From: Actinomycetota bacterium
GTDB taxonomy: Bacteria > Actinomycetota > Actinomycetes > S36-B12 > UBA5976
Assembly: GCA_009698575.1 (NCBI GenBank)
Contig: WLPX01000004.1
Location: 16,160-80,159 of the forward strand
Direction: 5' to 3'
DNA length: 64,000 nt
This document shows, one piece after another, positions 5,214-54,204 of the stretch. A program made the translations under genes and the position numbers. Under the pieces are notes generated by a model. It had not been told where the DNA came from. It saw nothing but the letters and a program-made list of their open reading frames with translations, and did no database searches. Every line of letters starts with the position of its first letter. The stretch's first letter is position 1.

Positions 5214-5382
5214 GGTGGTACTCCTCGTGAAAAGTGTGTGGTGGAATCTGTGACTGTGAGTCCGCAACGTCACGAGGCTTCGATGGCTAGCGGTAGAACT
5301 ATTGTGTCATAGATGCCTTTAAAGGGCCGCATTGGGATTGGTAGTGCCAGCTCAAAAAGGCTGAGTTCTGGCTTTTTTTGCA

Positions 5383-23955: not shown

Positions 23956-24873
23956 CTAATTTTTAACCACTAAAACACCTAAGCGACCTAAGCGCAATCC
24001 ACCGACTTTTGCATTAGGTGTAGCCTCTGTTTTGAGAACAGTCGTTCCTAACTTTTCTAAAAGCATTGAAATCGACTTTAGATTGTAATAATTCAGGTGT
24101 TCCGACTGCTTAACTACCCCACGTTTCGGGATGCTGAATCCAAATTGGCGAGCAATTCCAGAAGCAAAGTCATGTGCAATGAATTTTCGTTTGCTGCTAG
24201 TTGATATTCGACTAAGCATTTCTGCATACTTCTCAGATCCATGATGACTCTTTATAGATGGGCGATCCATTGGAACTTCGACGTATAAGTAGGATCCAGA
24301 ATTCAAATGGGAAATCAAATTAGTGAAAAAATCTATCGGATCATTTACGTGTTCCGCGATGTGGGCTGCCACAATTAGATCAATTTTATCCTTCACAACA
24401 CCAAGGGAAGGTTCGCGAGAAACATTTTTTCGCAATGTCTTATTGGATACATCAATAACGATTCTTTCTTGGATATCTATCTCTGGAAAAAATTGTCCCT
24501 CATCTCCACCAAAGTCGACGACGGTTTTGCATTCCTGCAGCCCTGCAGAAATCAATATATTGGTCATGAATGAAACACGCTCATCTACATGATCAGACTC
24601 ACCAGAATAAGCATCATTTACTGTTCGTCGATACCACGGTTCCCAAGAATTCCGCACTGCATAATAGTTATCGCTGCGATACCCGGAATACATCGCTGCC
24701 ATTTCATTGTCTGAAAATCTTTTTTCAAAGAAACTAAATTCACAATTGTCGCAATTCAACAAAGTTGTGAACTGTGGATCCTTTTGGCCGGATATTTCGG
24801 TGATCCATGGCGCCACTACTGCATTAGCAATTTTTGTAACGCTTGCACCGCATGCGAGGCATTGATTTGCCAT
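23956..24873 (-). CDS. Class I SAM-dependent methyltransferase with N-terminal CxxC/CxxC motif
   Basis: CLAC...CDNC, VVDFGGDEG, HIAEHVNDP, LYVEVP, EHLNYY; ATG at 24873 immediately after the rfbG stop. Confidence 0.75.
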   Translation of the reverse strand: MANQCLACGASVTKIANAVVAPWITEISGQKDPQFTTLLNCDNCEFSFFEKRFSDNEMAAMYSGYRSDNYYAVRNSWEPWYRRTVNDAYSGESDHVDERVSFMTNILISAGLQECKTVVDFGGDEGQFFPEIDIQERIVIDVSNKTLRKNVSREPSLGVVKDKIDLIVAAHIAEHVNDPIDFFTNLISHLNSGSYLYVEVPMDRPSIKSHHGSEKYAEMLSRISTSSKRKFIAHDFASGIARQFGFSIPKRGVVKQSEHLNYYNLKSISMLLEKLGTTVLKTEATPNAKVGGLRLGRLGVLVVKN

Positions 24874-24874
24874 G

Positions 24875-25900
24875 TTAACCACCTTTAATTTCCAAGAAGG
24901 CACTCAATTGTTTTTGAGAAATCCCTAAGGCATGCTCACCAGATAAGAATTGCTTATGCCATCTAACTGTCCACTCAATTGAATCTCTAAACTCAAGCTT
25001 GTTTTTCCATAGCAAATTACTTTTTGCTCTTGTTGCATCCAGTGCTAACAAGCCAGCCTCATGTGGATTTTCCTGCACGTCATGTGACCATACAGATTTA
25101 CTACCCCATAAATCGGCCACAATTGTGGCAACTTCTCCCACGGAAACGAAGCTGTCTTGATCAGGCCCAATGTTAAACGATTCAGGCATTTTCTTGGACA
25201 TCAATAAACGATCACAAATCATTAGGTACCCATTTAGGCAATCAAGTACGTGTTGCCAAGGACGTACGGCTTGCGGGTAGCGCAGTACAGGAGGCATCCC
25301 ATTTACGTACGAATTGATCAGATCCGGTAACAGCCGATCTGGGCTAACGTCGCCACCACCGATTACATTTCCTGCTCTCGCGATTGCCGTGGGTGCGCCT
25401 GGAAATGACGTTATCCATGAATGAGTAGCAATGTCTGCCATTGCTTTTGAGGCACTGTATGGATCATCTCCGCCTAGAGGGTCGTCTTCAACGTAACCAG
25501 CAATCTGATTTACATTTCGGTAAACCTTGTCTGTAGTTATAACCAGGTGAGCCTTAACAGCAGGCGTAGCGGAAACTGATTCCAGAATATTTAGAGTCCC
25601 CATTGCATTGGTCTCAAACGTTGTGCGCGGGTCTTTATATGATTCGCGTACAAGTGGTTGGGCAGCCATGTGGATAACTACATCTGGTGAAGTCGACGTA
25701 ATTGCCTCCTTAACGGCGGAAAAGTCCCGGATATCAACACGCATATCATTGGTAATTAAATCTTTTACACCCGCAACTTCATAAAGGCTGCCAGTGATTG
25801 GGTCAAGTGATATTCCCGAGACGGAATGGCCTTGAGATTGTAGCCAAATTGAAAGCCACGCTCCCTTAAATCCTGTATGACCGGTTATCAAGTAGTGCAT
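24875..25900 (-). CDS. rfbG: CDP-glucose 4,6-dehydratase
   Basis: ITGHTGFKGAWL, HMAAQPLVRESY, TTDKVY, DPYSASK, ARAGNVIGGGD, RPWQHVLD, HEAGLLALD. Confidence 0.95.
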   Translation of the reverse strand: MHYLITGHTGFKGAWLSIWLQSQGHSVSGISLDPITGSLYEVAGVKDLITNDMRVDIRDFSAVKEAITSTSPDVVIHMAAQPLVRESYKDPRTTFETNAMGTLNILESVSATPAVKAHLVITTDKVYRNVNQIAGYVEDDPLGGDDPYSASKAMADIATHSWITSFPGAPTAIARAGNVIGGGDVSPDRLLPDLINSYVNGMPPVLRYPQAVRPWQHVLDCLNGYLMICDRLLMSKKMPESFNIGPDQDSFVSVGEVATIVADLWGSKSVWSHDVQENPHEAGLLALDATRAKSNLLWKNKLEFRDSIEWTVRWHKQFLSGEHALGISQKQLSAFLEIKGG

Positions 25901-25910
25901 TTACAAATGC

Positions 25911-27230
25911 CTATGCGTGCTTATTTACAAACTCGGTGATCGAGTCAGAAATGTAATCCAGCATCGGTTCTGTTAGACCCGGATAAACACCGACCCAGAA
26001 TGTTCGGCGCATAACTATATCGGTGTTCGTTAAGTCACCAACAACGCGAAAATCAACATTTCTATATGCCGGTTGCTTCATAATGTTTCCAGCAAACATT
26101 AATCTCGTACCAATTTTTCGAGAATCCAAGAATCGCAACAATTCCTCTCTATTCACAGGATGTTTTGGATCAAGGGTGATTGGAAAACCAAACCATGATG
26201 GATCAGATTTTGGAGTGGCTTTTGGCATGATCAAGCCTTGAACGCCCTTTAGCTTCTTGGAGAGATACTTGAAATTCTTTTTACGAGCATCGCTGAAGGA
26301 ATCTAGTTTGGTGAGCTGTGAAAGACCTAGTGCCGCCTGCATGTCAGTAGCTTTTAGGTTGTAGCCGATGTGGCTGTAAATATACTTGTGGTCGTAACCT
26401 TCTGGCAGATCACCAAGCGTCCAACCAAAACGCTTATTACACGTGTCATCGTGACCAGTTTCGCAGTAGCAATCACGTCCCCAATCTCGGAAAGATTCAA
26501 CTTGTTTCTTGACTAACGGGGACTTAACAAATACCGCTCCACCCTCACCTGTTGTTATATGATGTGCTGGATAAAAACTAGCTGTTGCAGTGTCACCGAA
26601 GCTTCCAGTTTTTTGACCATCATATGTAGATCCAAGTGCGTCGCAAGAGTCTTCAATCAACCAAAGATTGTGTTCATCACACAACTCTTGCACGGTGTCC
26701 AAATCAAACGGGTTGCCTAAGGTGTGTGCCATCATGATCGCGCGAGTTTTTGGACCTACAGCTTCTCGCAATCGATCCGATTTTGCGTCATAGGTTTCTA
26801 ATTCAACGTCAACAACTACGGGCCTTAATCCATTTTGAATTATCGGATTTACTGTGGTTGGAAATCCCATGGCTACCGTCAAGACTTCGTCACCAGGCTT
26901 TAGTGCCTTTTTCCCGAGTTTTGGACTTGTCAACCCTGAAAGCGCAACAAGATTTGCACTTGAGCCACTGTTTACAAAAAGGGCACTTCGTGAACCTACG
27001 TATTTTGCAAGTTTTCTTTCAAACTCGGCAGTGAACCTACCTGCAGTAAGCCAGCCATCTAGGGATGAATCAACCAGTGCTACTAGATCGTCCGGATCGA
27101 GCACCTTCCCAGATACTGGAACGACTGACTCTCCAGGCTTGAATTCTGATTTTTCAAGGTTTTTTTCAGCAAATGCTCTTGCGGCATCCAGCGCGACTTT
27201 TCTTAATGTTTCCAACTCGCTTTTTGCCAC
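25911..27230 (-). CDS. rfbH: CDP-4-keto-6-deoxy-D-glucose 3-dehydrase (E1, PMP/[2Fe-2S])
   Basis: [32 protein letters not shown] (His in place of the PLP Lys), WGRDCYC..DDTC cluster motif, YDHKY. Confidence 0.95.
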
Positions 27231-27353: not shown

Positions 27354-28127
27354 GTGAAGGCTGTTTTACTTGCAGGCGGTCTTGGTACGCGTTTGCGCGA
27401 AGAAACCGAATTCAAGCCAAAACCTATGGTTGAAGTTGGTGGAAGACCAATAATTTGGCACATTATGAAGAACATAGCTATGCACAATATCGGAGAGTTT
27501 GTTGTTGCTACTGGATATAAGAGTGAAGTTATTAAGGACTATTTTCTAGACTATGAAGCAAGAAATAACGATTTCACGGTTTCACTCGGTGAAAAGCATG
27601 CAATTGAATTCCATGATGCCCACGATGAAGGCGACTGGAGAGTAACTCTCGCATTTACCGGTGAGTTAACTATGACCGGCGGACGCGTTAAGCGAATTGA
27701 AAAATACCTTGGTGGAGAAAGATTCCTCTGCACTTATGGAGACGGCCTAGCAGACGTAGATATTTCTGCCTTACTCGATTTCCATAAATCCCACGGAAAA
27801 CTAGCCACCGTAACTACCGTTCAACCTTCAAGTCGATTTGGAATCATGGATGTGAACTCAGGGGGTGAAGTTAAGAGCTTCAAAGAAAAGCCAAAGTTAG
27901 ACGGTTGGATAAACATTGGCTTCTTCATCTTTGAGCCTGAAGTATTAAGTTACCTAGACACAGAATGCGTGCTTGAACAGGAACCACTTGCAAAACTAGC
28001 CAAGGATGGCCAACTTATGGCATTTCGTCATGAGGGTTTCTGGCAACCAATGGATACGTATCGTGAATCAACGATGTTGAATGAGATGTGGAATGACGGA
28101 AGTGCTCCTTGGAAGACATGGAGTTAA
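27354..28127 (+). CDS. rfbF: Glucose-1-phosphate cytidylyltransferase
   Basis: LAGGLGTRLREET..KPKPMVEVG, TMTGGR, TYGDG, FWQPMDTYRE, APWKTW. Confidence 0.95.
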   Translation: MKAVLLAGGLGTRLREETEFKPKPMVEVGGRPIIWHIMKNIAMHNIGEFVVATGYKSEVIKDYFLDYEARNNDFTVSLGEKHAIEFHDAHDEGDWRVTLAFTGELTMTGGRVKRIEKYLGGERFLCTYGDGLADVDISALLDFHKSHGKLATVTTVQPSSRFGIMDVNSGGEVKSFKEKPKLDGWINIGFFIFEPEVLSYLDTECVLEQEPLAKLAKDGQLMAFRHEGFWQPMDTYRESTMLNEMWNDGSAPWKTWS

Positions 28128-28133
28128 AAAGTA

Positions 28134-29066
28134 ATGTCAAAAAAACTAATCAGCGTGATCATTCCTGCCTACAACGAAACAGAATGCATTGAAGAGCTTC
28201 ATTCGCGTCTTGCGAATATTTTTGATGTAGAAACTGACTACGACTTTGAAGCGGTGATCGTGGAAAATGGCTCGAGCGATGACACCTACGAGAAACTACT
28301 TGTAATTAACCAAAAGGATTCTAGATTCAAAATCCTAAAGCTGGCTAGAAACTTTCGAATGGATGGCGGCCTAACTGCTGGACTAAGTGTTATCGATAGC
28401 GATGCCTGTATTTTGATGACTGCTGACCTACAAGATCCCCCAGAACAAATTCCAGCCCTAATCAGGAAATGGGAAGAGGGATTTGAAAACATATACGGCA
28501 TTGTCACTGAGCGCCAGGGCACTGGGCCAATTAGAACATTCAATTCGAAGGCTTTTTATTGGGTCGCGGGGAAATTGACCGATAATCGAATTCCGAAGAA
28601 CGCAAGTGACTTTCGACTTCTTGACCGCAAAGTGTATGAAGCGGTTCGAGACATGGACGAGCGAAATCGTTTTGTACGCGGACTTGTTGCTTGGGTTGGA
28701 TTCACATCTGTTGGCGTGGAGATCGCTCGTCCGCCAAGATTCGCCGGCGAATCTAAGGCCTATTCATTCCAAGTTATTGACTTAGCATTCAAGGGCATTT
28801 TTGCGCATTCATACAAACCGTTAAGAATCATCACTGTGACAGGAATATTGGTCAGTGTGCTTTCGGTAATTGGATTCATCGCATTGGCATCGCGCTGGTT
28901 CTTAGTTGGCGTTCCATTCGGTGGCTATGGAACTCTCACAACAATTGCTCTTTTTTCTTTCGGGCTACTGACCTTTATGTTAGGAATCATTGCTGAATAT
29001 CTTGGCTTGATTTATGAGGAAGTTAAGAAGAGGCCAAACTACGTCGTTGACCGTTGGTTGTCTTAA
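28134..29066 (+). CDS. GT2 polyprenyl-phosphate glycosyltransferase (GtrB/ArnC-like)
   Basis: IPAYNE, NGSSDDT, RNF, TADLQDPPE, DFRLLDR, RFVRGLVAWVGF, two C-terminal TM helices, EEVKKRPNY. Confidence 0.88.
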   Translation: MSKKLISVIIPAYNETECIEELHSRLANIFDVETDYDFEAVIVENGSSDDTYEKLLVINQKDSRFKILKLARNFRMDGGLTAGLSVIDSDACILMTADLQDPPEQIPALIRKWEEGFENIYGIVTERQGTGPIRTFNSKAFYWVAGKLTDNRIPKNASDFRLLDRKVYEAVRDMDERNRFVRGLVAWVGFTSVGVEIARPPRFAGESKAYSFQVIDLAFKGIFAHSYKPLRIITVTGILVSVLSVIGFIALASRWFLVGVPFGGYGTLTTIALFSFGLLTFMLGIIAEYLGLIYEEVKKRPNYVVDRWLS

Positions 29067-29746
29067 TGAATCGGGTAGCGGTTTTTGGTAGTTCCGGCGC
29101 ATTGGGATCGACGATATCAAATGACTTTGAAAACTTGGGGTTTGATTCCGTTCGATTAACTAGTAGTTCTTCAAAAGAGAATCTTGTTTCTACTTTGGAT
29201 GAGAATTGGGTCGAAGTTCTTACTAAGCCCGGAAAACTCGATGCGGCCGTTTGGGCTCAAGGATTTAATCAGTCTGACAACATAAGTGAGTTTTCGATAG
29301 ATGTCTTTAATAAGCACCTTGATGCGAATGTTTCTTACATTCTTGACACTGTGCACAAACTTATTGCAGCCGATGCCTTTACAAACAGAGCCCGCATCGT
29401 AATTTTGAGTTCAATATGGCAAGAGTCATCGAAAGCGAACAAGCTTAGCTACATGGTTTCTAAGTCTGCTCTCAAAGGGCTAGTAACCAGTCTCTGCCTT
29501 GACTTGGGACATAAAGGCATAAGTGTCAATGCGGTATTGCCTGGTGTCACTGATTCGCCAATGACCCATCGCAACTTATCTTCAGAGCAAATTGCTCACG
29601 TGGTTGACGAGACACCCTTGAATATCCTGCCTCGAATCGAAGAAGTCTCAAAGACGGTTACGTGGTTAGCGTCTACAGACTCAAGCGGTATCAATGGACA
29701 ATTCATCACAGTTGATAACGGTTGGACTCGATACCGAAATGTTTGA
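29066..29746 (+). CDS. Classical SDR oxidoreductase
   Basis: GSSGALG, LSSIW, YMVSK, NAVLPG, INGQFITVDNG; TAATG overlap with the upstream gene. Confidence 0.88.
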   Translation: MNRVAVFGSSGALGSTISNDFENLGFDSVRLTSSSSKENLVSTLDENWVEVLTKPGKLDAAVWAQGFNQSDNISEFSIDVFNKHLDANVSYILDTVHKLIAADAFTNRARIVILSSIWQESSKANKLSYMVSKSALKGLVTSLCLDLGHKGISVNAVLPGVTDSPMTHRNLSSEQIAHVVDETPLNILPRIEEVSKTVTWLASTDSSGINGQFITVDNGWTRYRNV

Positions 29747-30797
29747 AATTCCGGTATCGAGCAAGTTGGGTTCGTACACAATAAATATAAATAGCAGCAT
29801 CGATCCGATTACTGTACCTGGCATCGCGATCGTGGATTCGAATACTAGATCGCACTTAGTTGCTCAAGACTCAGCAAAGCTCATCATCATTGAAGCGTCG
29901 GAGGAAGTTAAAACCCTGCCTTCGTGCGAATCCGTAATTATCAAACTTAATGATTTGGGGCTGAAGCGAAGCGATTCGATCAGCGCAATCGGTGGTGGCA
30001 CAACTCAAGATCTGGCAACACTGACTGCCAGCCTTTACATGCGCGGTGTCTCATGGACCTACTATCCAACAACACTGATGTCTATGACTGACTCATGCAT
30101 CGGCGGCAAATCAGCAATCAATGCTGGCGATCGAAAGAATCTGATTGGAAACTTCTACCCACCTAATGAAATCCAAATCAACACGAGATTCCTGGAAACA
30201 AACTCAAACATAGATATTGTTAATGGGTTGTCTGAGGCAGTAAAGATTTGCTTTGCTCGAGGTGCGAACGCGTTTGAAAAGTACATCGCCTTGCCCTCAT
30301 CTCTAAAGCCAGGCAACGATAAGAACACAGCCGAATTGATTAATCACACGTTGAGCACGAAAAAGTGGTTTGTCGAAATTGATGAATTTGATTTAAAGGA
30401 ACGACAACTACTTAACTTTGGGCATTCTTTTGCTCATGCACTCGAGTCAGCGACTAATTATTCAATTCCGCATGGAACAGCCGTAGGAATCGGCATGATT
30501 GCGGCACTACGTCATCCAGAATCAAGCAGTTCTGGCAGGTCCAAGGTGTTGATTGACTATTCATTAAAGATGCTCGACCTAACTAAGGAATCTATATCAG
30601 ACGGCATGAAGCATTTTGATGACACAAAATTCGTTACTGCTCTTGATCGAGATAAAAAAAATTCCCAAGAATACTTACGTTTAGTTTTACTCAACAGAAA
30701 TGATGAGTTGGAACTAATCTCGTTAGAGCGAAATGATTACCAACTTCAAATAGCACTTTCATCCTTAAAAGAAGCAATTAGTGAGGTCCTGCTGTGA
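29739..30797 (+). CDS. 3-dehydroquinate synthase-like / sugar-phosphate cyclase family protein
   Basis: IGGGTTQD, PTTLMSMTDSCIGGK, KNLIGNFYPP, SEAVK, LNFGHSFAHALE, HGTAV metal ligands. Confidence 0.85.
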   Translation: MFEIPVSSKLGSYTININSSIDPITVPGIAIVDSNTRSHLVAQDSAKLIIIEASEEVKTLPSCESVIIKLNDLGLKRSDSISAIGGGTTQDLATLTASLYMRGVSWTYYPTTLMSMTDSCIGGKSAINAGDRKNLIGNFYPPNEIQINTRFLETNSNIDIVNGLSEAVKICFARGANAFEKYIALPSSLKPGNDKNTAELINHTLSTKKWFVEIDEFDLKERQLLNFGHSFAHALESATNYSIPHGTAVGIGMIAALRHPESSSSGRSKVLIDYSLKMLDLTKESISDGMKHFDDTKFVTALDRDKKNSQEYLRLVLLNRNDELELISLERNDYQLQIALSSLKEAISEVLL

Positions 30798-32560
30798 AAT
30801 ATTCAGATCAATTAGTTCAATGGCTTAAAAGCGAAGGTTTCACTCACTGCTTTTTTGTAGCAGGTGGAAACATTATGCACTTGCTCAACTCCGTTCGTAA
30901 TGAAATGACATGCATACCCTTTGTTAATGAAGTTGGTGCAGCAATCGCAGTTGAGTCCTTTAATGAGACTTCAAATTCTAAGAATGAAAAAGCGTTCGTG
31001 CTTGTCACTGCTGGACCTGGATTAACTAATGCAATTACTGGAATATCAGGAGCATGGCTAGAAAGTCGGGAACTCCTTGTAATTGGTGGCCAGGTCAAAA
31101 GTTCAGACCTGAAGGAAAAAGAAATGCGACAACGAGGAATTCAAGAAATTGACGGAGTTGAACTTGTTTCCACAATTACTAAGGATGCAATTCGAATAAC
31201 TAAACCAATTTCACGGGAACTATTCTTGTCCACGGTAAAAAAGGGAAGCACTGGCAGGAAGGGTCCTGTGTTCATTGAAATCTGTCTCGATGCCCAAGCC
31301 AATCCACCTCTGGATGAGGTCTCACCTAATCAAGAAGAGAACTCAACCTCTAAGGCCGCGCAGATCTTGGATGACAAGACCTTGGACTTGATAAAGAACT
31401 CAAAGCGCCCAGTTTTACTCATCGGTGGAGGCGTGGGATTTGATTTTGCCCAGAACCACTCAGAAGACTTTAAAAATCTGGGAATTCCACTCATGACGAC
31501 CTGGAATGGTGCGGATCGAATTTCATCAATTAACCCTCTTTATTTTGGTCGTCCAAACACATGGGGTCAGCGCTCTGCCAACATTCTGATTCAGCAGTCA
31601 GATCTGGTCCTCGCAGTAGGTACCAGACTAGGTCTGCAGCAAACTGGATTTGCCTGGGAAGAATTTGTTCCAAACGGAAAAGTAATACAGATAGACATAG
31701 ATAAAAGCGAACTCGATAAAGGTCACCCAACAATTGAGCATGGAATAAACGTCGATGCAACAGAATTTCTAAAGGCTCTGTTTACAAGCGCAAATGACTT
31801 AGAGCTTGATTTCTCAACTTGGAAAGAATTTTGCAACGAAGTTAAAGGTGCGCTGCCACTTACTGATCCAGAAAACATAACTAGACCTGGATTCGTTGAT
31901 CCATATCTTTTCGGAATGGCAATCTCTGGAGTTGCAAATCCTGATGCCGTTATCGTGCCTTGTAGCAGTGGTAGTTCTTTCACAGTGTTGATGCAAACAC
32001 TCAGCCAATCAGGCTCCCAGCGAATAATCTCCAGCAAAGGTTTGGCAAGCATGGGGTATGGACTCAGTACCGCCATAGGTAGTGCATTCGCAAATCCTGG
32101 GAAACAGATCTTCTTGGTTGAAGGCGATGGCGGATTTGCCCAAAACCTCCAAGAGCTCGGTACCGTTGCAGCAAATAACCTGCCGATCAAAATCTTCATT
32201 TGGGCCAATAATGGCTATGCCTCAATTCGCATGACCCAAAGAAACTATTTTGACGGGGCTTGGGTCGGTTGCGATTCAGAAACAGGGCTTGGACTACCAG
32301 ATTTGGAATTGCTAGCAAAGACCTACGGGATTTCCTACCTTCGCATGACAGAAAACATTTTTAACGAACAGGGCATTGTCAATATATTGGCTGCGCCTGG
32401 GCCTGCAATCATAGAAGTTCCAATTGATCCAGAGCAAACATTTTATCCAAAAATCACTTCATCGGTTCAGCCTGACGGGTCTATGAAATCTAATCCATTA
32501 CACTTAATGAATCCGGAGTTGTCGAAAAAAATCGCAAAGCAAGTCTTTAAATACCTCTAG
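30794..32560 (+). CDS. Thiamine diphosphate-dependent enzyme (acetolactate synthase-like, YerE-type)
   Basis: NEVGAAIA (catalytic Glu), VTAGPGLTN, GRKGPVFIEI, LASMGYGL, EGDGG...NNGYASIR ThDP motif. Confidence 0.9.
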   Translation: MKYSDQLVQWLKSEGFTHCFFVAGGNIMHLLNSVRNEMTCIPFVNEVGAAIAVESFNETSNSKNEKAFVLVTAGPGLTNAITGISGAWLESRELLVIGGQVKSSDLKEKEMRQRGIQEIDGVELVSTITKDAIRITKPISRELFLSTVKKGSTGRKGPVFIEICLDAQANPPLDEVSPNQEENSTSKAAQILDDKTLDLIKNSKRPVLLIGGGVGFDFAQNHSEDFKNLGIPLMTTWNGADRISSINPLYFGRPNTWGQRSANILIQQSDLVLAVGTRLGLQQTGFAWEEFVPNGKVIQIDIDKSELDKGHPTIEHGINVDATEFLKALFTSANDLELDFSTWKEFCNEVKGALPLTDPENITRPGFVDPYLFGMAISGVANPDAVIVPCSSGSSFTVLMQTLSQSGSQRIISSKGLASMGYGLSTAIGSAFANPGKQIFLVEGDGGFAQNLQELGTVAANNLPIKIFIWANNGYASIRMTQRNYFDGAWVGCDSETGLGLPDLELLAKTYGISYLRMTENIFNEQGIVNILAAPGPAIIEVPIDPEQTFYPKITSSVQPDGSMKSNPLHLMNPELSKKIAKQVFKYL

Positions 32561-32575
32561 AAAACGGAGTACGAC

Positions 32576-33373
32576 ATGAATAAAACCGAACGCAAGATGT
32601 CAGAAATTCTTAAGCGCGGAAAAAATGAATTTGGTGTCGTTAGCATCAAGGCAGAATTTGAGGCTGAAGGTACTCGCGTAGATGAACTATTGCGTTTGGT
32701 TGATATTGCAAGATCAGCTGATTTGCCTATGACGGTAAAAATTGGTGGCTGTGAAGCTGTTCGAGATTTGCTTGAATCGAAGCAGATCGGCGTTAGATAT
32801 GTAGTAGCACCAATGGTTGAGACTCCGTACGCGCTGAGCAAATACATTCTTGCCAAGAACATGGTTTTCAATGAGGACGAATTAGAAGACAGCGACTTTT
32901 TATTTAATTTGGAAACAATAACTGGCTTTAACAACTTGGATGAACTAGTCACAGTTGCTCGCTCAGAAGGCGGAGTTCAAGGTGTGGTCTTTGGGCGCGT
33001 AGATTTCGCTGGTTCACTGGGTGAAAACCGAGACACAATCAATGAAGCAAAGATTACTGAATACGTTGCCAAGGCATCTGCTGCTGCCAAGGACGCATCG
33101 CTTGATTTCGTCATGGGTGGCGCGATTTCAAGTGACTCATTGCATGTGATTAAAGAAATCGCCGGAATTCACCTAACTAGGTTTGAAACCCGCAAAGTTG
33201 TTTTTAGTGGTGAAGCCGGAACTATCAAGAATATCGAACAAGGTCTGGTTAATGCCGTACACTTTGAATTACTGTGGCTTTTGAACAAGCGGGATTACTA
33301 CGGTCGCATCACCCAAGAAGATGCAAAGAGAATCGATATGCTTGAAGCTCGTTGGAATGTCCTCAGTAGCTGA
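32576..33373 (+). CDS. HpcH/HpaI aldolase / citrate lyase beta-like protein
   Basis: [40 protein letters not shown]. Confidence 0.75.
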
Positions 33374-34337
33374 AAACTCGAGACTTTTAGAGAATTTTCT
33401 TAAGCAGGCTCTGCCCAGCAACGTTCGCATCTTAGTTAATGGTGCGAACGGCTGGTTAGGTAAGAATATTTCCGAATCACTTTGGAATATGTTCGGTGGG
33501 GAATTTAGTTCACAAGTTTTGCTAACCGGCTCTAAGAATGGAATTCTGCAGTTGCAGAATGGTTCCGAGTTAGAGATCAATCGGTGGACCGAAGAACTTA
33601 TAGAGGAATTCAAACCAACCCATGTGATTCAGTTAGCGTTTAAGACACGTGACCATGTGGGTGAAATCTCCAATGACGAGTACGTCTCTCTAAACGAAGA
33701 AATCATTAACCGCGCCCTATGGACAATTTCGCTACCAAGCACGCAAGGATTTCTTCACACTTCCAGTGGAGCAGCACTTGGTGAAACTGCTTTTGACAAA
33801 CATATTGACCCATACGGATATCTCAAGAAATTCGAAGAATCCAGTTACTCAAGTGCTTGCAAGGATAACGGCAAACGTTATCTAGGTTTGCGGGTTTGGT
33901 CTACTACGGGTCGATACATCAAGTCAGGTGGCCTCTTTGCGATTGAAAGTCTAATCAGTCAGGCAATGTCTTCAGAAAACTTAAGCATTAATAGTCAAGG
34001 AGAAGTTTGGCGCAGCTATGCAGACGCCAATGAGATTCTGCTTGCTGGACTTATCGCACTTTTCACTGGTGAAACGGGTTTGTACAATTCCGGAGGAACT
34101 GACACAGAAATCGGTGAGCTGGCTGATCTTGTCTCCTCTTTGACACCCAGTCGCACGCCTGCAATAAATCGGATCAAAGATAGCGCAGCTACCGCAAGTA
34201 TTTATACCTCTATCGAACCCTCTATCGAACAGGTTCTGGCTTTACATGACTTGCGATATTCGGATTTACGGGCTCAGGTAATTAATACAATGCAATACTT
34301 GACATGGCTACATAGTCAATCAAATCCTCAGGACTAA
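33357..34337 (+). CDS. NAD-dependent epimerase/dehydratase/reductase (extended SDR)
   Basis: [20 protein letters not shown]; start at ATG 33357 is uncertain (track gives 33321). Confidence 0.75.
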
Positions 34338-34346
34338 GGGAGATAA

Positions 34347-34739
34347 GTGAAGCTTCTTAGAGCCGCTCCCCTCCAAGTCAGATACACAATTGTCGGACTC
34401 TGGAATACATTCGTGGGATTTGGACTGTTTACCATGTTTATCTACGTGCTACCTGTTTCGAGATATCTACTTGCCCTTATGTTGGCTACTGTCTTTGCAG
34501 GAATGAATGCTTACCTCACCCAAAGAATATACGTGTGGCAAAGCAGTGCAACGATTAAAAAGGAAGCGAGTAAGTTTTTCACAGTCTACATTACTCAATC
34601 TGTGGCAAATGTAATTTTGCTTTACTTGCTTGTTAACTACTTGAATTTAAATCCGCTCTGGACACAGTATGTAATCGCGACAGTGCTTATCGTCCTTACT
34701 TACCTCTCACACAAGTACTGGACATTTAAAGTTAGTTAG
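34347..34739 (+). CDS. GtrA-family flippase
   Basis: RYTIVGLWNT, four TM helices, NAYLTQRIYVW, TYLSHKYWTF. Confidence 0.88.
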   Translation: MKLLRAAPLQVRYTIVGLWNTFVGFGLFTMFIYVLPVSRYLLALMLATVFAGMNAYLTQRIYVWQSSATIKKEASKFFTVYITQSVANVILLYLLVNYLNLNPLWTQYVIATVLIVLTYLSHKYWTFKVS

Positions 34740-35451
34740 CTACAATCGCAAGAAGCAAGCACTGTACAGAAGATCCCACATATTTCAAGCGAAGTGCTGG
34801 ATCTACCAGAACATACTCATTTAATATTTTTCGCTCATCCTCATCAAATGCTTCATCGAAATACAAGAAATCACCCACCTGAAGATGATTTTTCATATAG
34901 TTCCAGGCAAATTCTGTTGGCTCGAATAAATCGAAGTCAAAGAATAATATAAGTTGCTGACCTGCTTTTCGTTCGAATACGAAAGTTGGAAGGGTTTCTT
35001 CAATGTTCCATTTGTAAAAGGTAACTCGTTCGTCATTCAAATCAGGTGCTTGGCCACCTGCATCAAAGTGACCTTCCTTCAGGGACCGCCAACTAGCAGG
35101 TAACCCAGTGAACCTATCAAATCCATGCCATTCGACTTTGGTTGACTTGTTTATCTACTTAATCCACCAATTGGTTGCGTACCCATGTGCAACACCAAAC
35201 TCAAGTACGGCGATTGACTTGCCTTGCAACCTATCGACCAGTGATTCCCAAACGCTCTCTCGCTGAACTTTTTGATGTAAGTTTTCTCCAAAATTCTGTT
35301 TCAACCAGGAACGATAATCCATAACGGTTACAGCATTTTGGGCTTTTCTCTTGATGCCCTCGATCTTTCCACCAAGTAGTCCAAACATCCACAAACCAAA
35401 CAAAATTACGAAACTGGCAGAAGGGTCTTTGAATCTTGTTTCTTGCGTCAT
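34732..35451 (-). pseudogene. TylF/MycF/NovP-type O-methyltransferase interrupted by one in-frame TAG (35155-35157)
   Basis: VLEFGVAHG..WWIK*INKSTKVEWHGFDRFTGLPASW...EETLP...FDFDLFEPT...LYFDE reads in a single frame across ORFs 35155..35475 and 34732..35040. Confidence 0.8.
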
Positions 35452-35479
35452 GCTGTTCACACTAACAAAATGCAATGCG

Positions 35480-35890
35480 TTATTTTGTTGATAAGAATGA
35501 TTTCAATTGCTCGGCACAGGTATCCGAAGGGCTATCTCCCCGATTAACCGCGACTTGCCAATCAACGGTCCACTTCAAAGATTCCTTGAAGCTCAACTTG
35601 TTGTGCCAATTAAGTTCTAGTTCAGCTTTGCGGGCATCTAGTGCCAATAGGTTTGCCACATCGCGAACATATACAAACGAGCTGGTTTCAGGGCAAAAGT
35701 TCCATTCGCCTTGCCCGTTGCCTTTAAGTAACGAGACAGATAGCTTCAAATAGCGATTCAGGCAGTCGAGGACGTGTTGCTACAGCCTAGCCGCTCCTGG
35801 GGGAAGCGCAGAACAGGAGCCTGGACAGGAAGGTAGGCATTTAGCAGGTTTGGGGAAGGCAATCTTTGCTGACATCACCGCCGCCCGTTA
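35480..35890 (-). pseudogene. Decayed 3' half of a second CDP-glucose 4,6-dehydratase (rfbG) gene
   Basis: GGGDVSKD / PNLLNAY..APVLRFPQ / *QHVLDCLNRYL / WNF.PETSSFVYV / LLALDA..WHNKLSFKESLKWTVDW align with intact RfbG; frameshifts, a TGG>TAG change at 35780-35782 and an internal deletion. Confidence 0.85.
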
Positions 35891-35958
35891 CAGAGAAACA
35901 GTCCTTGATGCCAAGGTAAGCAAGCCTTGCCGCTACGTAATCTGATAACTTCATTGCA

Positions 35959-37494
35959 TTAATTCCCGATGACTTGGATTTTGCGAAACTGCCCAATTAG
36001 AACTATCGATGAGGCCGCATAAAGCACACAAAACAGGATAGCTACTTCCCAATAATCAGGGACCCACTTGAGGTCCCACCATAACTTATTCTTAAAAAGT
36101 GGAAATCCGATTCCATACCTGCTGTAACTCCATAAAAGTGTGCTGAAGTGCATCAGCACTGTAACTCCAACTAAATTTCTAAAGTCAAGAACTGTGACAC
36201 GAATATTCTTCTTTAAGGTTACTGAATAGATTGCTCCAGCTAAAAAAGGTAGCGATACAAAGAGCGCTCCAGTGTACCTAGACTGAAATCCTGCGCCTCC
36301 AAGCAATCCGAGAGTCCGCGTTGAAAAGATAGGAATTAAGGCATAGGTGATAAACATAAAACCTACAATTGATATCTTGCTACATATATTTAAAATGCGC
36401 GCAAAGAAGTAAATCATTCCAAAGTAGATCGCAGCCCATGTAATAAGTACCCATAGCGGAGGCGTGTGATCGCGCCAACCAAGCCAGCCAAAATGTTCTA
36501 TGGTATACGAAGCGAAATTTGAAAGAATAGATCTAGCGGATGCTCCTAGAGATAGAACCTCTGATTCTGTACCTCTAAGTTCCAAAACATCGCGATACTT
36601 TGAATTTGAAATGTATCCGATCGCACCCGAAATCGAAATCACACTTACTAGCAAAGTGCTCTCAAGCTTTGAAATAAACTTACCTATAACTCTGGGCATT
36701 TTCGTTTCAACTAGAGACGAGCCAATAAGTGCAAACAATGGCATTCCAATAATCAAAACTACATAAAAATAAGACAGTGGCTTTGCGACACTTAGGCTTA
36801 GTGAAATAAAGAAAATCGCGATTAGCCTAATTTTCCATAAGTTGTTTCGTTTATCAAAAGAATCTCTATCAATGTGTAAGCCCGCCAAAAGACCCGCAAG
36901 TGAAAGTCCACATGCCATTTCAAATCCATTTGGATTTACGGCAGTTGTGAAAGTAGTAAACATGGGGGTGACCGCAACAATTGTGGCAATTGCTAGAAGT
37001 GCATAATTTTTTTTCGGCCAAAGTAAAACCATCAATCCAAACATGATTAGCGTCAAAAATGTAGAAACTAGTCTCATTCCATACATTGCATGCAAGCCAC
37101 TCATGAATCGCGAAGGCTGGCCCACGAAATAGAAATATGGCTCAGGATATCCGCTAATCATTGTATCCATTGAAGTCACAGTCGGTTTGTTAGAGGTCGA
37201 AAACCATCCCGATCTTCGTTGACAGTCGGCAGTTGCTTTCGGATTAAACGCCGTGCATGCAAGTGCAGGCGCATACTGTAGGTACTCTGGGATGCTAGCG
37301 TCTCCAAAGTTTTGCCCACTGGCGATTACATTGGCGTAAATTGCGTAAGCCGGTTCATCGGCAACACCTCCAATTGGAGTAGTGCTTGCCCACATTAAAT
37401 TAACAAAAGCTATAGTAGCGAATAGTGATGCCCGAAATTTTGTCTCATAGTTTTCTCGAAAGTAATCAAAACGACTTGCTTTACTGCTCATCAT
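35959..37494 (-). CDS. DUF2142-like polytopic membrane protein (probable GT-C glycosyltransferase)
   Basis: ADEPAY after the first TM, GYPEPYFY, MRLVS, TPM..AVNPNGFE, FGWLGWRD, QSRY; about 11-12 TM helices. Confidence 0.72.
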   Translation of the reverse strand: MMSSKASRFDYFRENYETKFRASLFATIAFVNLMWASTTPIGGVADEPAYAIYANVIASGQNFGDASIPEYLQYAPALACTAFNPKATADCQRRSGWFSTSNKPTVTSMDTMISGYPEPYFYFVGQPSRFMSGLHAMYGMRLVSTFLTLIMFGLMVLLWPKKNYALLAIATIVAVTPMFTTFTTAVNPNGFEMACGLSLAGLLAGLHIDRDSFDKRNNLWKIRLIAIFFISLSLSVAKPLSYFYVVLIIGMPLFALIGSSLVETKMPRVIGKFISKLESTLLVSVISISGAIGYISNSKYRDVLELRGTESEVLSLGASARSILSNFASYTIEHFGWLGWRDHTPPLWVLITWAAIYFGMIYFFARILNICSKISIVGFMFITYALIPIFSTRTLGLLGGAGFQSRYTGALFVSLPFLAGAIYSVTLKKNIRVTVLDFRNLVGVTVLMHFSTLLWSYSRYGIGFPLFKNKLWWDLKWVPDYWEVAILFCVLYAASSIVLIGQFRKIQVIGN

Positions 37495-37625: not shown

Positions 37626-38207
37626 TTAACCTGAATATAAATGGTTAAAATCAAACTGAGATAGCTGCTCCGAAATCTCAAGTAGTAACGGCGCCACAGC
37701 ATCTTTAGTAGATAGCAGCGGGGTGATGCCGTTGGGCCAACTAATTCCAATTTCTGGATCCAACGGATTGATTTCTCTCTCATTGGATGGGTCGTAACGC
37801 TGATCGCACAAATAAACAACGGTTGAGTTATCTTCAAGGGCCATAAATGCGTGTCCAACACCATTAGGTATTGACATGGCCTTATGGTTTTCAGCGTTTA
37901 GGATTTCACCGTGCCACTTTCCGAAAGTTGGCGAACCGTTTCTTAAATCGACAATCACATCAAAAATTTCCCCAGTAAAGCAGCTTACGTACTTGCGCTG
38001 CCCCGGAGGATCATCGGCAAAATGAATTCCTCTCAAAGTGCCCTTGCTTGAAATTGAACAATTTGCCTGCGCAAGTGTGAAGCTATGTCCAGCCGCTTCC
38101 ACAAATGTTGAATCTTGAAACCACTCGAAAAATGTTCCGCGATCATCGGAGAATTGCTTTGGCGTGAAAACCCAGGTACCAGGTATATCTAATTGCGTGA
38201 CTGTCAT
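37626..38207 (-). CDS. rmlC: dTDP-4-dehydrorhamnose 3,5-epimerase
   Basis: DDRGTFFEWF, QANCSISSKGTLRGIH, VDLRNGSPTFGKW, GHAF, LSTKD. Confidence 0.95.
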   Translation of the reverse strand: MTVTQLDIPGTWVFTPKQFSDDRGTFFEWFQDSTFVEAAGHSFTLAQANCSISSKGTLRGIHFADDPPGQRKYVSCFTGEIFDVIVDLRNGSPTFGKWHGEILNAENHKAMSIPNGVGHAFMALEDNSTVVYLCDQRYDPSNEREINPLDPEIGISWPNGITPLLSTKDAVAPLLLEISEQLSQFDFNHLYSG

Positions 38208-45641: not shown

Positions 45642-46790
45642 TCATCCTTCCAAATTGCCAATTGATACTTCAACTGGGATCAATCCAGAATTACTTGCTG
45701 AACGTGGTATCGCTATAAATCCCACAGATTCATTGACGGCAACCAAAGAATCGTCACTAGTGTTCATTAACCGTAGTGCGAGTCTATATTCACCCTCACC
45801 TAGGACGAGGTTACGTAACGTAATAGTTCCAGAATGAGATTGGGCTATGGAATGAATCAATAATTTCTGAACACTGTTAACAATTCGATATCCATCAGAT
45901 GTCCAAATTTCAACATTTAATGACAATTCAAGCGATTCTTGAATTGCATTGAATGCAAAATCGATATTGACATCGGCTGACACTTTATGCTGCAACGTAT
46001 TGCTGCTGTCGGAATTTACGATTTTACCTGTTATTGGAGAAACGGTGTTTGAATTTGTTATCGCGGATTCATTTACAATTTGATGGTATTTTCCAGCAGC
46101 AACCTCTGTTGGGCCAGCATAAACGACTTGTCCATGTTTTAGAAGTACGGATTCCTGGGTAAAGGCAATTGCATTATCCATACTGTGCGTTACTAATACG
46201 ATGCTTCTACCTTCGGACTGCAAAACTCTAACTTTTTTAAGGCATTGGTTTTGAAAGGCTTCATCGCCGACGGCAAGGACTTCGTCAACCAGCAATAAAT
46301 CCGGATCGACGTGAACCGCCACTGCAAAACCTAATCTGACATACATTCCACTGCTATAGGTCTTTACTGGCGAATCGATAAATTGACTGATGCCGCTGAA
46401 GTCAACAATATCGTCAAAAATCGTATTGATTGATTTTTTGCTAAGTCCCAGAATTGAGCCATTGAGATATATGTTTTCGCGCCCAGTTAGCTCCGGGTGG
46501 AAACCAGCACCTAGTTCCAGGAGAGCTCCTAGCCTGCCTTTTCTATACACATTGCCAGTAGTCGGTCTATAAATTCCACCGACAACTTTTAGTAAAGTCG
46601 ATTTCCCAGAACCGTTTGCTCCAAGTAGCGCAAGGCTCTTGCCCGCCTCGAGATCGAAACTAACTTGCTCAAGTGCCCAAAAACTGTCAGCTTCTACTTT
46701 TGCTCTTGTAAAGCGATCTTGAATAGTCCTTGCGCGCCGATAATCAAACCTTTGCGAAACTCCTTCTACTCTCAAAATTTTATTTGGCAC
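45642..46790 (-). CDS. wzt: Polysaccharide ABC transporter ATPase Wzt with C-terminal Wzt_C domain
   Basis: GANGSGKST, ELGAGFHPELTGRENI, YSSGM, LLVDEVLAVGD, VTH; ~130-aa beta-rich C-terminal domain; start GTG 46790 or TTG 46808. Confidence 0.92.
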   Translation of the reverse strand: MPNKILRVEGVSQRFDYRRARTIQDRFTRAKVEADSFWALEQVSFDLEAGKSLALLGANGSGKSTLLKVVGGIYRPTTGNVYRKGRLGALLELGAGFHPELTGRENIYLNGSILGLSKKSINTIFDDIVDFSGISQFIDSPVKTYSSGMYVRLGFAVAVHVDPDLLLVDEVLAVGDEAFQNQCLKKVRVLQSEGRSIVLVTHSMDNAIAFTQESVLLKHGQVVYAGPTEVAAGKYHQIVNESAITNSNTVSPITGKIVNSDSSNTLQHKVSADVNIDFAFNAIQESLELSLNVEIWTSDGYRIVNSVQKLLIHSIAQSHSGTITLRNLVLGEGEYRLALRLMNTSDDSLVAVNESVGFIAIPRSASNSGLIPVEVSIGNLEG

Positions 46791-46791
46791 G

Positions 46792-47691
46792 TTAGAGTTC
46801 CCTTGCAAAATTTGGTTCTAATCGAAGGAATAGTCGGTAAGCAAAATAGAACCCAATAAGTCCAAAGATTGGCAATCCCCAGTATGTGAGAGTTCCTGTT
46901 CCAATCAAGTCACTAGCAATGCTTCCGTCTGAATAGAAACGATCGCCACCCCAAAGCAGGTCTTGGAATTCAATCACAATTGATGAAATTGGATTCAACA
47001 TATAAATCTTAAAAAATAGCTCTGATCCAAAACGTTCTTGAACTGCATTCCAAACAAAAGTCCACGAATACATAATGGGAGACAAATACAGAAATAGCAT
47101 TAATAAAACTTCAACAAGATGCTGTGTATCTCGAGCGTAAACATTTATCGCACTCAAAATCAATGCTGCGCTTAGGGCAAAAAGTATGGCAGCAAATGCA
47201 ATTGGAATAATCAGTACTACATTACTAATTGGCGGCCAAATTCCTGCGATCGCAAAACCAATAATCAAAACTGGGATCTGGACTAAGAAATTGTAGCCAC
47301 CAATAATTACTCTCGATAACGGAAGGATTTCTCTTGGAAACGAAACCTTCGTGATCAATGCCGCACTTGAAGTAATCGAAGTTGCACCGCCGGAAATACA
47401 TTCCGAAAAGAATCCCCAGACCATAAGACTTACAAAAATAAAAATTGAATAATCCTCAATTGATTTACTGGCACCCAGAAATTTTCCAATCACAACTGAA
47501 AACAGGACTAGTTGCATTAAAGGCTTAAAAACTGCCCAGGCAAATCCAAAAACGCTTCCGCGATATCGAGAGCTGATCTCACGTCTGACCAAAGCTCGAA
47601 CTACACCTCGCGCTTCCCAAACTTCGCGAACTGCAGTCCCAACATGCCGCTTCGGACCAACCACAATCCAAGGCGTTTCACTTGTAATCAA
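46792..47691 (-). CDS. wzm: Polysaccharide ABC transporter permease Wzm
   Basis: SRYRGSVFGFAW, LITKVSFPRE, YARD, YLSPIMY, NPIS, EPNFAREL. Confidence 0.93.
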   Translation of the reverse strand: MITSETPWIVVGPKRHVGTAVREVWEARGVVRALVRREISSRYRGSVFGFAWAVFKPLMQLVLFSVVIGKFLGASKSIEDYSIFIFVSLMVWGFFSECISGGATSITSSAALITKVSFPREILPLSRVIIGGYNFLVQIPVLIIGFAIAGIWPPISNVVLIIPIAFAAILFALSAALILSAINVYARDTQHLVEVLLMLFLYLSPIMYSWTFVWNAVQERFGSELFFKIYMLNPISSIVIEFQDLLWGGDRFYSDGSIASDLIGTGTLTYWGLPIFGLIGFYFAYRLFLRLEPNFAREL

Positions 47692-53133: not shown

Positions 53134-53215
53134 TCTGCTTTAGGTTGGGCATGATGAATTTGCATCGGCCTGCACTACCCTTTAAACAGCACATTTCTTA
53201 AGCGAAAGTTCCAAC

Positions 53216-54193: not shown

Positions 54194-54204
54194 GTTTGGC
54201 TCCA

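Follow-up and report, generated by a model that had tools for sequence, protein, structure and literature searches.

Positions 28134-37494 of a 64,000-nucleotide stretch of actinobacterial DNA (contig WLPX01000004.1; the whole stretch is referred to below as the window) on balance probably encode a polyprenyl-phosphate-mediated three-component module for an acyl-branched 3,6-dideoxyhexose, lying inside a variable cell-wall polysaccharide island. The source of the window is a small freshwater actinobacterium with a genome of 1.7 Mb that is 92% complete. The three components are a family 2 glycosyltransferase (GT2) of the GtrB type, a small membrane protein of the GtrA family and a polytopic membrane protein of the DUF2142 family. 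They were put forward as a triad in an earlier reading of the letters alone (the original prediction), and all three exist as open reading frames (Table 1). That prediction is right in outline and DUF2142 is its weak link. The three genes are real and probably form a three-component module; the role of DUF2142 within it, the acceptor and the CDP-linked donor are what we infer. The module is of a known kind, with precedents in Gtr-like triads, in the acyl-branched sugar scheme and in the polyprenol-linked donors considered for the DPM-like glycosyltransferases of mycobacterial lipooligosaccharide (LOS) clusters. What appears to be new is the clade-wide loss of the first Asp of the DxD motif in the glycosyltransferase, a probable CDP donor, the wide occurrence of the cassette among freshwater actinobacteria, a candidate alternative outer transferase in DUF2142 and the scars of cassette exchange.

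In the proposed mechanism RfbF, RfbG and RfbH would produce CDP-4-keto-3,6-dideoxyglucose, and an HpcH-type aldolase would combine pyruvate with an aldehyde, possibly supplied by a short-chain dehydrogenase (SDR) and a dehydroquinate synthase (DHQS)-like enzyme, to give a 4-hydroxy-2-keto acid. A YerE-like thiamine diphosphate (ThDP)-dependent enzyme would decarboxylate the keto acid and join it to C4 of the sugar, which would be finished by reduction, through either the SDR or the epimerase-like protein, and perhaps by a methyltransferase. At the inner membrane face the GT2 would then exchange the CDP on the sugar for polyprenyl phosphate, GtrA would flip the lipid-phosphate-sugar and DUF2142, acting as a GT-C enzyme, would transfer the sugar outside the membrane, the likeliest acceptor being a rhamnose/galactofuranose polymer exported by Wzm/Wzt.

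The glycosyltransferase

Full-length homology supports the identification of the GT2 as a GtrB-type lipid-phosphate glycosyltransferase. The protein matched PF00535 at 1.7e-23, and its residues 6-308 aligned with the solved Synechocystis GtrB (5EKP, a polyisoprenyl-phosphate glucosyltransferase) with an E value of 1.1e-69. ArnC was matched at 1e-32 and the archaeal DPMS over the N-terminal GT-A part only (residues 5-120). With two C-terminal hydrophobic segments (228-263 and 265-294) the enzyme has the architecture of the GtrB type, that is a GT-A domain, juxtamembrane helices and two C-terminal transmembrane (TM) helices, alignable over the full length. The claim that this is a polyprenyl-phosphate glycosyltransferase (PI-GT) with TAD in place of DAD was thus supported by homology, T96-A97-D98 standing opposite D94-A-D96 of GtrB.

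A complete DxD motif (D94-x-D96 in GtrB) is absent from the window's enzyme. Thr occupies position 96 in 118 of 120 close homologues, which are 60-97% identical. A scan for relatives, using one genome per species, returned at least 563, and the best 80 loci were analysed (individual loci are designated by L numbers). No readable locus of the 80 had D at the position of the first Asp, the residue there being T, A, S or Y (71 were read by pattern and six of the nine pattern misses by eye, with three left unread). Counterparts of GtrB D96, Q98, D99, D157, R125 and R197 are invariant in the clade, and the second, metal-binding Asp and the equivalent of Q98 are retained in the window's enzyme. The residues R127, R134, R182, R199 and D159 (R125, K132, K180, R197 and D157 in GtrB) were invariant in 21 clade members, and the enzyme keeps most of the basic residues with which GtrB binds the lipid phosphate, together with its proposed alternative base, D157. 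Further departures from GtrB are the replacement of R122 by Val and of W207 by Ala, and ENGS for the base-contacting DDGS/NDGS.

Time-resolved cryo-EM of GtrB, published in 2025, described D94 as part of a universally conserved DxD and, following work on ArnC, as the likeliest catalytic base (PMC12698845). The clade of the window's enzyme, whose TAD form occurs in the genomes of at least 563 species and has relatives of the SAD and ASD forms, amounts to a natural experiment on the mechanism of GtrB and ArnC, in that the favoured Asp is replaced throughout the clade and the other candidate base, D157, is invariant. If the clade is active, it argues that D157 or D99 is able to serve as the base. 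Loss of the first Asp was also considered as a specific mark of CDP donors. This idea was weakened by a GtrB-like SAD enzyme from the same genus that sits inside an operon of rmlA/rmlB and amino-sugar genes; because of this enzyme, and of the ASD form carried by a relative (L092), the loss is not confined to CDP cassettes.

Linkage of the glycosyltransferase to sugar genes and GtrA

Gene neighbourhoods were compared in the 42 of the 80 loci that have at least 8 kb either side of the GT2. A copy of rfbF was beside the GT2 in all 42, and it was directly upstream in 33 of 72 loci, which upholds the proposed tie between the GT2 and CDP-sugar genes. The ThDP enzyme and an rfbG-like gene were each present in 39 of the 42, rfbH in 30, the aldolase in 27 and the DHQS-like gene in 22. 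When an iterated profile was used, GtrA was found with the GT2 in 30 of 40 full cassette loci, 23 of the 40 also encoding or instead encoding a polytopic protein of the GT87 type. Small flippases of the GtrA type are typical of monosaccharide carriers, and GT87 is a GT-C family dependent on polyprenyl-phosphate-sugar donors. The GtrA assignment of the original prediction was confirmed for the window, where the protein has the size of the family and covers the whole PF04138 model (positions 1-117 of 117); a crude hydropathy plot gave three clear segments and a weaker fourth.

The hosts of the 80 loci include a wide range of actinobacteria (Mycobacterium, M. gastri among them, Nanopelagicaceae, Planktophila, Aurantimicrobium, Rhodoluna, Cellulomonas, Acidimicrobiia and Solirubrobacterales) and the gammaproteobacterium Methylomonas, and the loci closest to that of the window come from metagenome-assembled genomes of freshwater actinobacteria, which agrees with an actinobacterial source, as does a WhiB gene in the locus of a relative. 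Cultured carriers of the cassette include Aurantimicrobium minutum MWH-Bo1 (L015) and the acI strain IMCC19121 (L016), the latter having the whole cassette from rfbF to GtrA, followed by GT87. In Methylomonas (L079, L086 and L089) the GT2, GtrA and GT87 genes are contiguous and the entire cassette lies on one strand; the GT2 of these methanotrophs is 59-61% identical to the actinobacterial enzyme, an identity that points to transfer between phyla.

These associations are strong evidence, of linkage and not of biochemistry, that the clade would make a lipid-linked form of the cassette CDP-sugar which is flipped and used outside the membrane. Both the CDP donor of the GT2 and the flipping of the lipid-phosphate-sugar by GtrA are predicted from gene linkage.

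The predicted branched-sugar pathway

The operon that runs from rfbF to GtrA consists of eight near-contiguous or overlapping genes in the order rfbF, GT2, SDR, DHQS-like gene, ThDP gene, HpcH-type aldolase, epimerase-like SDR and GtrA, with rfbF ending 6 nt before the GT2. The genes for RfbH, RfbG and a methyltransferase are divergent from it. The triad had been described as bracketing the sugar pathway, and this was true in part: the GT2 and GtrA enclose five tightly packed or overlapping genes, but DUF2142 lies 1.2 kb beyond, convergent, with three gene remnants in between.

The full set expected of a YerE-type pathway (rfbF, rfbG, rfbH, a YerE-like ThDP enzyme and an aldolase) is present in this one cluster. 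The best solved homologue of the ThDP enzyme is JanthE (8RPH; E 1.3e-86, as against 7e-63 for acetolactate synthase), which has been described as a YerE-like carboligase coupling keto acids to ketones. YerE-like enzymes accept 4-hydroxy-2-keto acids made by aldolases, and a single scheme has been set out for erwiniose, caryophyllose and gastriose in which CDP-4-keto-3,6-dideoxyglucose is joined to a keto acid and then reduced; in M. marinum MMAR_2331 was given as the aldolase, MMAR_2332 as the ThDP carboligase and MMAR_2333 as a glycosyltransferase (Steitz et al., PMC9306805). Because this published scheme has the genes found in the window, with GT2, ThDP enzyme and aldolase in the same order, the CDP-sugar of the cassette is read as an acyl-branched 3,6-dideoxyhexose, its exact structure being a prediction. 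Since an aldolase is present, a branch longer than C2 is predicted.

A sequence search of the PDB gave no solved homologue for the HpcH-like aldolase, and the epimerase-like protein, whose gene also comes after the GT2 in L003 and L092, had a weak match to 4ZRM. The DHQS-like protein fell below the cut-offs of TIGR04425 (274 bits against 400) and of aroB (231 against 305), and its best PDB matches were DHQS and DOI synthase. The SDR and the DHQS-like gene (29054-30797, + strand) travel as a pair, which was found in about half of the cassette loci, and in L007/L008 a HAD hydrolase takes their place; the aldehyde that the aldolase uses may come from this pair, or the pair may serve quite different side-chain chemistry. 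The methyltransferase encoded at the far end of the divergent genes has a homologue of 39-43% identity in several mycobacterial cassette loci.

DUF2142 as a predicted GT-C protein

The DUF2142 gene lies on the minus strand, a point that the original prediction left unstated. Its product scored 61.2 bits against the family profile (cut-off 30.1), over model positions 2-391 of 395. An AlphaFold (AF2) model built from a 96-sequence alignment had a pLDDT of 92.3 and a pTM of 0.94. When this model was compared with the PDB by Foldseek, ArnT ranked first (probability 1.0, E 8e-4, TM-score 0.40), followed by Pmt4, STT3 and Pmt1/2, with AftA at a probability of 0.54; every match at a probability of ~0.8 or more was a GT-C enzyme. 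A control polytopic protein of 512 aa, of the type found in L007 and L026, was modelled likewise and had no GT-C match. The predicted fold of DUF2142 is thus that of a GT-C protein.

The pair D46-E47, at least 90% conserved among the 96 homologues, is directly after TM1 in the first outer loop, on the side opposite from the N-terminus with its five K/R residues. Also conserved are C80 and C91, two invariant Cys in that loop, and N187, E192 and R406. The earlier description of a DUF2142-like GT-C candidate with a DE motif therefore agrees with the family assignment, the conserved pair and the fold matches, and the modelling that had been suggested as a check pointed to GT-C enzymes (ArnT, PMT, STT3 and AftA) and not to Wzy. 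A Wzy or O-antigen ligase was rejected, since neither the Pfam hits nor the Foldseek matches listed included one. A sequence search of the PDB with DUF2142 gave no match, and a scan of the genome contigs with the single protein as the query gave no relatives.

Is DUF2142 the third partner?

The assignment of DUF2142 as the transferase of the lipid-linked sugar, which is put forward here as an inference, draws on its relatives and on the gene content of the genome. The orthologue in L003 (74% identity) lies in the order rmlC-DUF2142-ThDP-NeuB-methyltransferase-GT2(TAD)-epimerase-like, all on one strand, and in L092/L093 (40% identity) rmlC-DUF2142 is followed by a convergent GtrA and then by GT2(ASD). 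A GtrB-like GT2 lacking the first Asp stands beside the gene of this DUF2142 subfamily in all three informative loci, and GtrA does so in one. In the more distant L134 and L005 (~30% identity) a GT2-DUF2304 pair adjoins DUF2142 within Wzm/Wzt loci. The genome encodes a single GtrB-like GT2 and a single DUF2142, and no large polytopic protein other than DUF2142 is encoded in the 64-kb window. No other lipid-phosphate-sugar synthase, including the Ppm1/DPM1-like type, was detected in the genome at its 92% completeness.

A considerable number of observations weigh on the other side. The Foldseek TM-scores are modest, at ~0.4 and up to 0.41. The genome is incomplete, at 92%. No E3 (AscD-type) reductase partner of E1 is present in the locus, and the rest of the genome has just two generic NAD_binding_1 proteins. 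In the GT2 the first Asp of DxD, the base proposed for GtrB and ArnC, is missing, and the activity of the enzyme is assumed. DUF2142 is convergent with the operon and not co-transcribed with it, and the junction between them is a recombination scar. The original prediction had DUF2142 as the third member of the triad, and as a conserved member it was not supported: when the large membrane proteins of the 80 cassette loci were searched with the DUF2142 profile none matched, and GT87 was the recurrent GT-C protein there. DUF2142 was accordingly dropped as the conserved partner of the cassette. The closest relatives of the cassette (L007/L008) have GT87 and another membrane protein of 512 aa and no DUF2142, and L026 likewise has a 512-aa membrane protein. 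The co-occurrence statistics that had been proposed were obtained from 30 DUF2142 loci drawn from 301 Actinomycetota genomes: DUF2142 occurred with rfbF or the ThDP enzyme in none of the 30, and a lipid-phosphate-sugar synthase was near in only ~8, of which three had a full-length GtrB-like GT2 and five a short GT2 with DUF2304.

An alternative is that the GT2 and GtrA make and flip the lipid-phosphate-sugar but that DUF2142 serves the adjacent rhamnan-type backbone locus, using some other lipid-linked donor. A different GT-C enzyme would then transfer the branched sugar, or the cassette would have lost its cognate transferase. Besides the missing DUF2142 and the recurrent GT87 in the cassette loci, this explanation is favoured by the position of GT87 in L007/L008, at the place of the window's methyltransferase and rfbG, by the scars that separate DUF2142 from the cassette, by the retention of an rmlC-DUF2142-GT2(358 aa) block whatever the cassette type and by the lack of linkage of DUF2142 to rfbF or the ThDP enzyme across the family. 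Candidates for the different GT-C enzyme exist in two distant GT87-like genes on contig 26 (L094:15659-16894 and 4880-6430), which are possible users of a lipid-linked sugar and to that extent count against DUF2142. They did not match the profile of the cassette-associated GT87, from whose subfamily they are distant, and lie in housekeeping contexts, so that they were set aside as cassette partners and kept as a minor rival only. With the GtrB-like GT2 adjoining DUF2142 in all three informative subfamily loci, GtrA in one, and no other synthase found in the genome to feed DUF2142, it is rather unlikely that DUF2142 is not the user of the branched sugar.

Two further explanations are given less weight. 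By analogy with the Wps system of Lactococcus, the lipid-phosphate-sugar could be a primer for cytoplasmic glycosyltransferases, with DUF2142 as a WpsI/WpsJ-like side-chain polymerase or en bloc ligase; the DUF2142 proteins of Lactococcus/Pseudolactococcus cwps loci have been classed as candidate polymerases or ligases of the WpsI/WpsJ type (PMC12599335), and several soluble glycosyltransferases are nearby in the window. Such a dual-chain arrangement is improbable, however, as the window has neither a Wzx/MOP-type flippase nor a second large polytopic protein, the flippase that is present is of the small GtrA type and the operon around the GT2 is that of a pathway to a single sugar. Least probable of all is that the GT2 is not a lipid-phosphate enzyme, being either inactive or a transferase that works at the cytoplasmic face with a membrane-anchored molecule as its direct acceptor. 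T96 where GtrB and ArnC have the favoured catalytic base, and the missing R122 and W207, would fit this, and direct transfer has been raised as an alternative for the DPM-like glycosyltransferases of mycobacterial LOS clusters (PMC4403928). The substitution is, however, fixed across hundreds of species in which the active site is otherwise strongly conserved, as are the juxtamembrane and TM regions, and only a lipid intermediate that is flipped would account for the lasting association with GtrA and GT-C genes. The three-component module with DUF2142 as the outer transferase is therefore retained as the preferred reading.

The membrane protein of 512 aa noted in the sister loci belongs to a polytopic family of ~512-523 aa with no Pfam match (L007:17396-18934, L026:7458-8996 and, in the same-genus genome G010, L136:15860-17431). 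TM1 is closely followed in the family by an invariant P-L-M-D-V-R..W-F, and the gene sits after GtrA in the sister islands, the place that DUF2142 has in the window. When the L007/L026 protein was tested as a hidden DUF2142 or GT-C, the hhalign probability was <1%, the AF2 model reached a pLDDT of only 72.5 and Foldseek gave no significant match. The protein is left unclassified, and the family is a candidate for an undescribed GT-C-like transferase.

Scars and the exchangeable island

The three remnants between GtrA and DUF2142 (Table 1) can each be traced to a related locus. The methyltransferase remnant and its L007 counterpart are 76.6% identical along 239 aa, and the rfbG remnant is 60% identical to residues 192-321 of the L007 RfbG, with additional fragments. 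The ThDP remnant directly follows the stop of DUF2142 and has ~90% DNA identity to L003 before ending abruptly. The rfbG and ThDP remnants are fused (35486-35955, - strand) and show where the exchange of one sugar cassette for another left its junction. It follows from the three remnants that DUF2142 once headed a cassette of the L003 type, which was later replaced by an inverted cassette of the L007/L026 type. L003 itself has split genes (L003:6778-8966), a NeuB-like gene in pieces of 250 and 107 aa and an FkbM-type methyltransferase in pieces of 248 and 92 aa, by decay or by assembly errors.

Among 25 genomes of the genus the GT2 was found in two and DUF2142 in one, and the locus has a lowered G+C content. 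In a sister species the same site adjacent to purL/purQ (purSQL) is occupied by a different PI-GT cassette (L136, G010:C2:332000-351900); it consists of rmlB-rmlA and a GtrB-like GT2 of the SAD type with amino-sugar genes (GNAT, WbqC and DegT), followed by GtrA and a protein of the 512-aa family. The view of the module as exchangeable was well founded on these grounds, namely its patchy distribution in the genus, the recombination scars and the different cassette at the same site; the camouflage purpose suggested along with it is conjectural. All of this fits an island where sugar cassettes and outer transferases recombine, and the visible scars show how the two are swapped, which bears on phage-host and grazing interactions in lakes.

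A wider reading is possible though doubtful, and is offered tentatively. GtrB-type PI-GTs without the first Asp may be a large group specialised for non-UDP 6-deoxy or dideoxy donors, CDP-branched dideoxyhexoses here and a dTDP amino-sugar in the sister species, and the freshwater island adjacent to purSQL may shuffle cassettes and outer transferases (DUF2142, GT87 and the unclassified ~512-aa family) independently of each other, so varying the surface glycan. If such a group exists, a general role as catalytic base in GtrB-type enzymes is excluded for the first Asp.

Table 1. Features of the module, its sugar cassette and the adjoining island (positions in the window)
Feature	Position	Strand	Evidence
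SAM-dependent methyltransferase; possible O-methylase of sugar or side chain	23956..24903	-	PF13489 5.7e-14
RfbG, CDP-glucose 4,6-dehydratase, functional copy	24875..25900	-	TIGR02622 equivalog, 389.5 bits (cut-off 278)
RfbH (E1), CDP-4-keto-6-deoxyglucose 3-dehydrase	25911..27230	-	NF011936, 706 bits (cut-off 423)
RfbF, glucose-1-phosphate cytidylyltransferase	27354..28127	+	TIGR02623 equivalog, 342 bits (cut-off 300)
GT2, GtrB-type PI-GT with TAD for DAD; predicted donor the cassette CDP-sugar	28134..29066	+	310 aa
Classical SDR; candidate for side-chain precursor or ketoreduction role	29054..29746	+	PF13561 1.4e-30
DHQS-fold enzyme, not AroB itself	29694..30797	+	PF01761/PF24621
YerE-like ThDP-dependent carboligase; would add acyl branch at C4 of CDP-4-keto-3,6-dideoxyhexose	30794..32560	+	three TPP domains
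HpcH/HpaI-type pyruvate aldolase; would make 4-hydroxy-2-keto acid donor	32576..33373	+	PF03328 1.9e-7
Divergent extended SDR (epimerase-like); candidate YerF-type side-chain ketoreductase	33321..34337	+	PF01370 1.6e-8
GtrA-family small membrane protein; putative lipid-phosphate-sugar flippase	34347..34739	+	130 aa; PF04138 1.8e-17
Methyltransferase pseudogene (or assembly error), one in-frame TAG at 35155-35157	34735..35451	-	stop visible in sequence
Second rfbG remnant, C-terminal part only	35486..35894	-	tblastn
ThDP-gene remnant, first ~26 codons, L003 type	35876..35955	-	DNA alignment with L003
DUF2142 polytopic membrane protein, predicted GT-C fold; candidate extracytoplasmic transferase	35959..37494	-	511 aa; PF09913
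RmlC, conserved upstream neighbour of DUF2142, rhamnose-polymer locus	37626..38207	-	PF00908 2.1e-62
Wzt/Wzm-type ABC exporter of presumed acceptor polymer	45642..47691	-	PF00005 and PF01061

The neighbouring polysaccharide locus and the acceptor

Beyond DUF2142 the island continues with rmlA, rmlB, rmlC, rmlD, an RgpF-like gene, Wzm/Wzt, Glf, several glycosyltransferases, a TagF-like gene and GDP-6-deoxyhexose genes, and rmlC adjoins DUF2142 in L003 and L092 as it does in the window. The layout is like that of the rhamnose-polysaccharide loci of streptococci and lactococci, which likewise carry DUF2142 genes, and from this resemblance the exported polymer is the most plausible acceptor. A rhamnose/galactofuranose polymer exported by Wzm/Wzt is thus most likely to receive the branched sugar. 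Protein glycosylation is a possible alternative, with PMT enzymes among the fold matches of the DUF2142 model. The GDP-6-deoxyhexose pathway forms the far end of the same island, where three consecutive extended-SDR genes (52159-55161, + strand) include one for GDP-mannose 4,6-dehydratase (PF16363, 409 bits).

Comparison with known systems

The pathway for acyl-branched sugars, known from Yersinia, Pectobacterium and mycobacterial glycolipids, would on these gene contents extend to abundant freshwater actinobacteria and to methanotrophs, and the prediction is that such sugars reach the cell surface by way of a lipid-phosphate carrier.

The closest parallel is with the caryophyllose genes of the M. 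marinum LOS locus and the acyl-branched scheme built on them, which share rfbF/G/H, the YerE-like ThDP enzyme, the pyruvate aldolase and the reductase with the window. The order GT2-ThDP-aldolase is also shared (MMAR_2333/2332/2331), MMAR_2333 being compared by its published gene order and not by sequence. A role with a lipid-linked donor was reportedly proposed for MMAR_2333 by Sarkar et al. in 2011. Mycobacterial loci, that of M. gastri among them, carry a GT2 of the same clade (65-71% identity) and, after the ThDP gene, the aldolase (72-73% identity). A lipid-linked (polyprenol) donor has been discussed for the DPM-like glycosyltransferases of mycobacterial LOS clusters (PMC4403928). Peculiar to the window are its host, a freshwater actinobacterium with a genome of only 1.7 Mb, a presumed acceptor that is a wall polymer and not an acyltrehalose glycolipid, the extra SDR/DHQS-like pair and a GT-C candidate that is DUF2142 and not GT87. 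Yersiniose A of Yersinia pseudotuberculosis (YerE/YerF) is formed in a similar way from CDP-4-keto-3,6-dideoxyglucose as the acceptor, by ThDP-dependent branching at C4 followed by reduction. The window differs in having an aldolase, and yersiniose enters the O-antigen during its ordinary assembly in the cytoplasm, a route that lacks a GtrB/GtrA step.

The combination of a GT2, a small flippase and a polytopic GT-C protein is that of the Gtr-type systems, which include GtrA/GtrB/GtrC of phages, CsbB-GtcA-YfhO of Bacillus and Listeria, the streptococcal GacI/J/K/L and ArnC/ArnEF/ArnT. Those systems use a UDP-sugar, whereas the donor in the window is probably a CDP-branched dideoxyhexose, and the window's GT2 has Thr for the first Asp of DxD and ENGS for DDGS/NDGS. 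The window also nests a whole sugar pathway between the GT2 and GtrA, and its third component is of the DUF2142 type and convergent. DUF2142 proteins of the same Pfam family are encoded in Lactococcus and Streptococcus thermophilus (WpsI/WpsJ-like), again in a wall-polysaccharide locus with rml genes, RgpF and an ABC exporter. Polymerisation or ligation of oligosaccharide side chains is the function given to those proteins, by assignment and not from biochemistry, whereas the partners of DUF2142 in the window, a GtrB-type enzyme and GtrA, point to the transfer of a single sugar.

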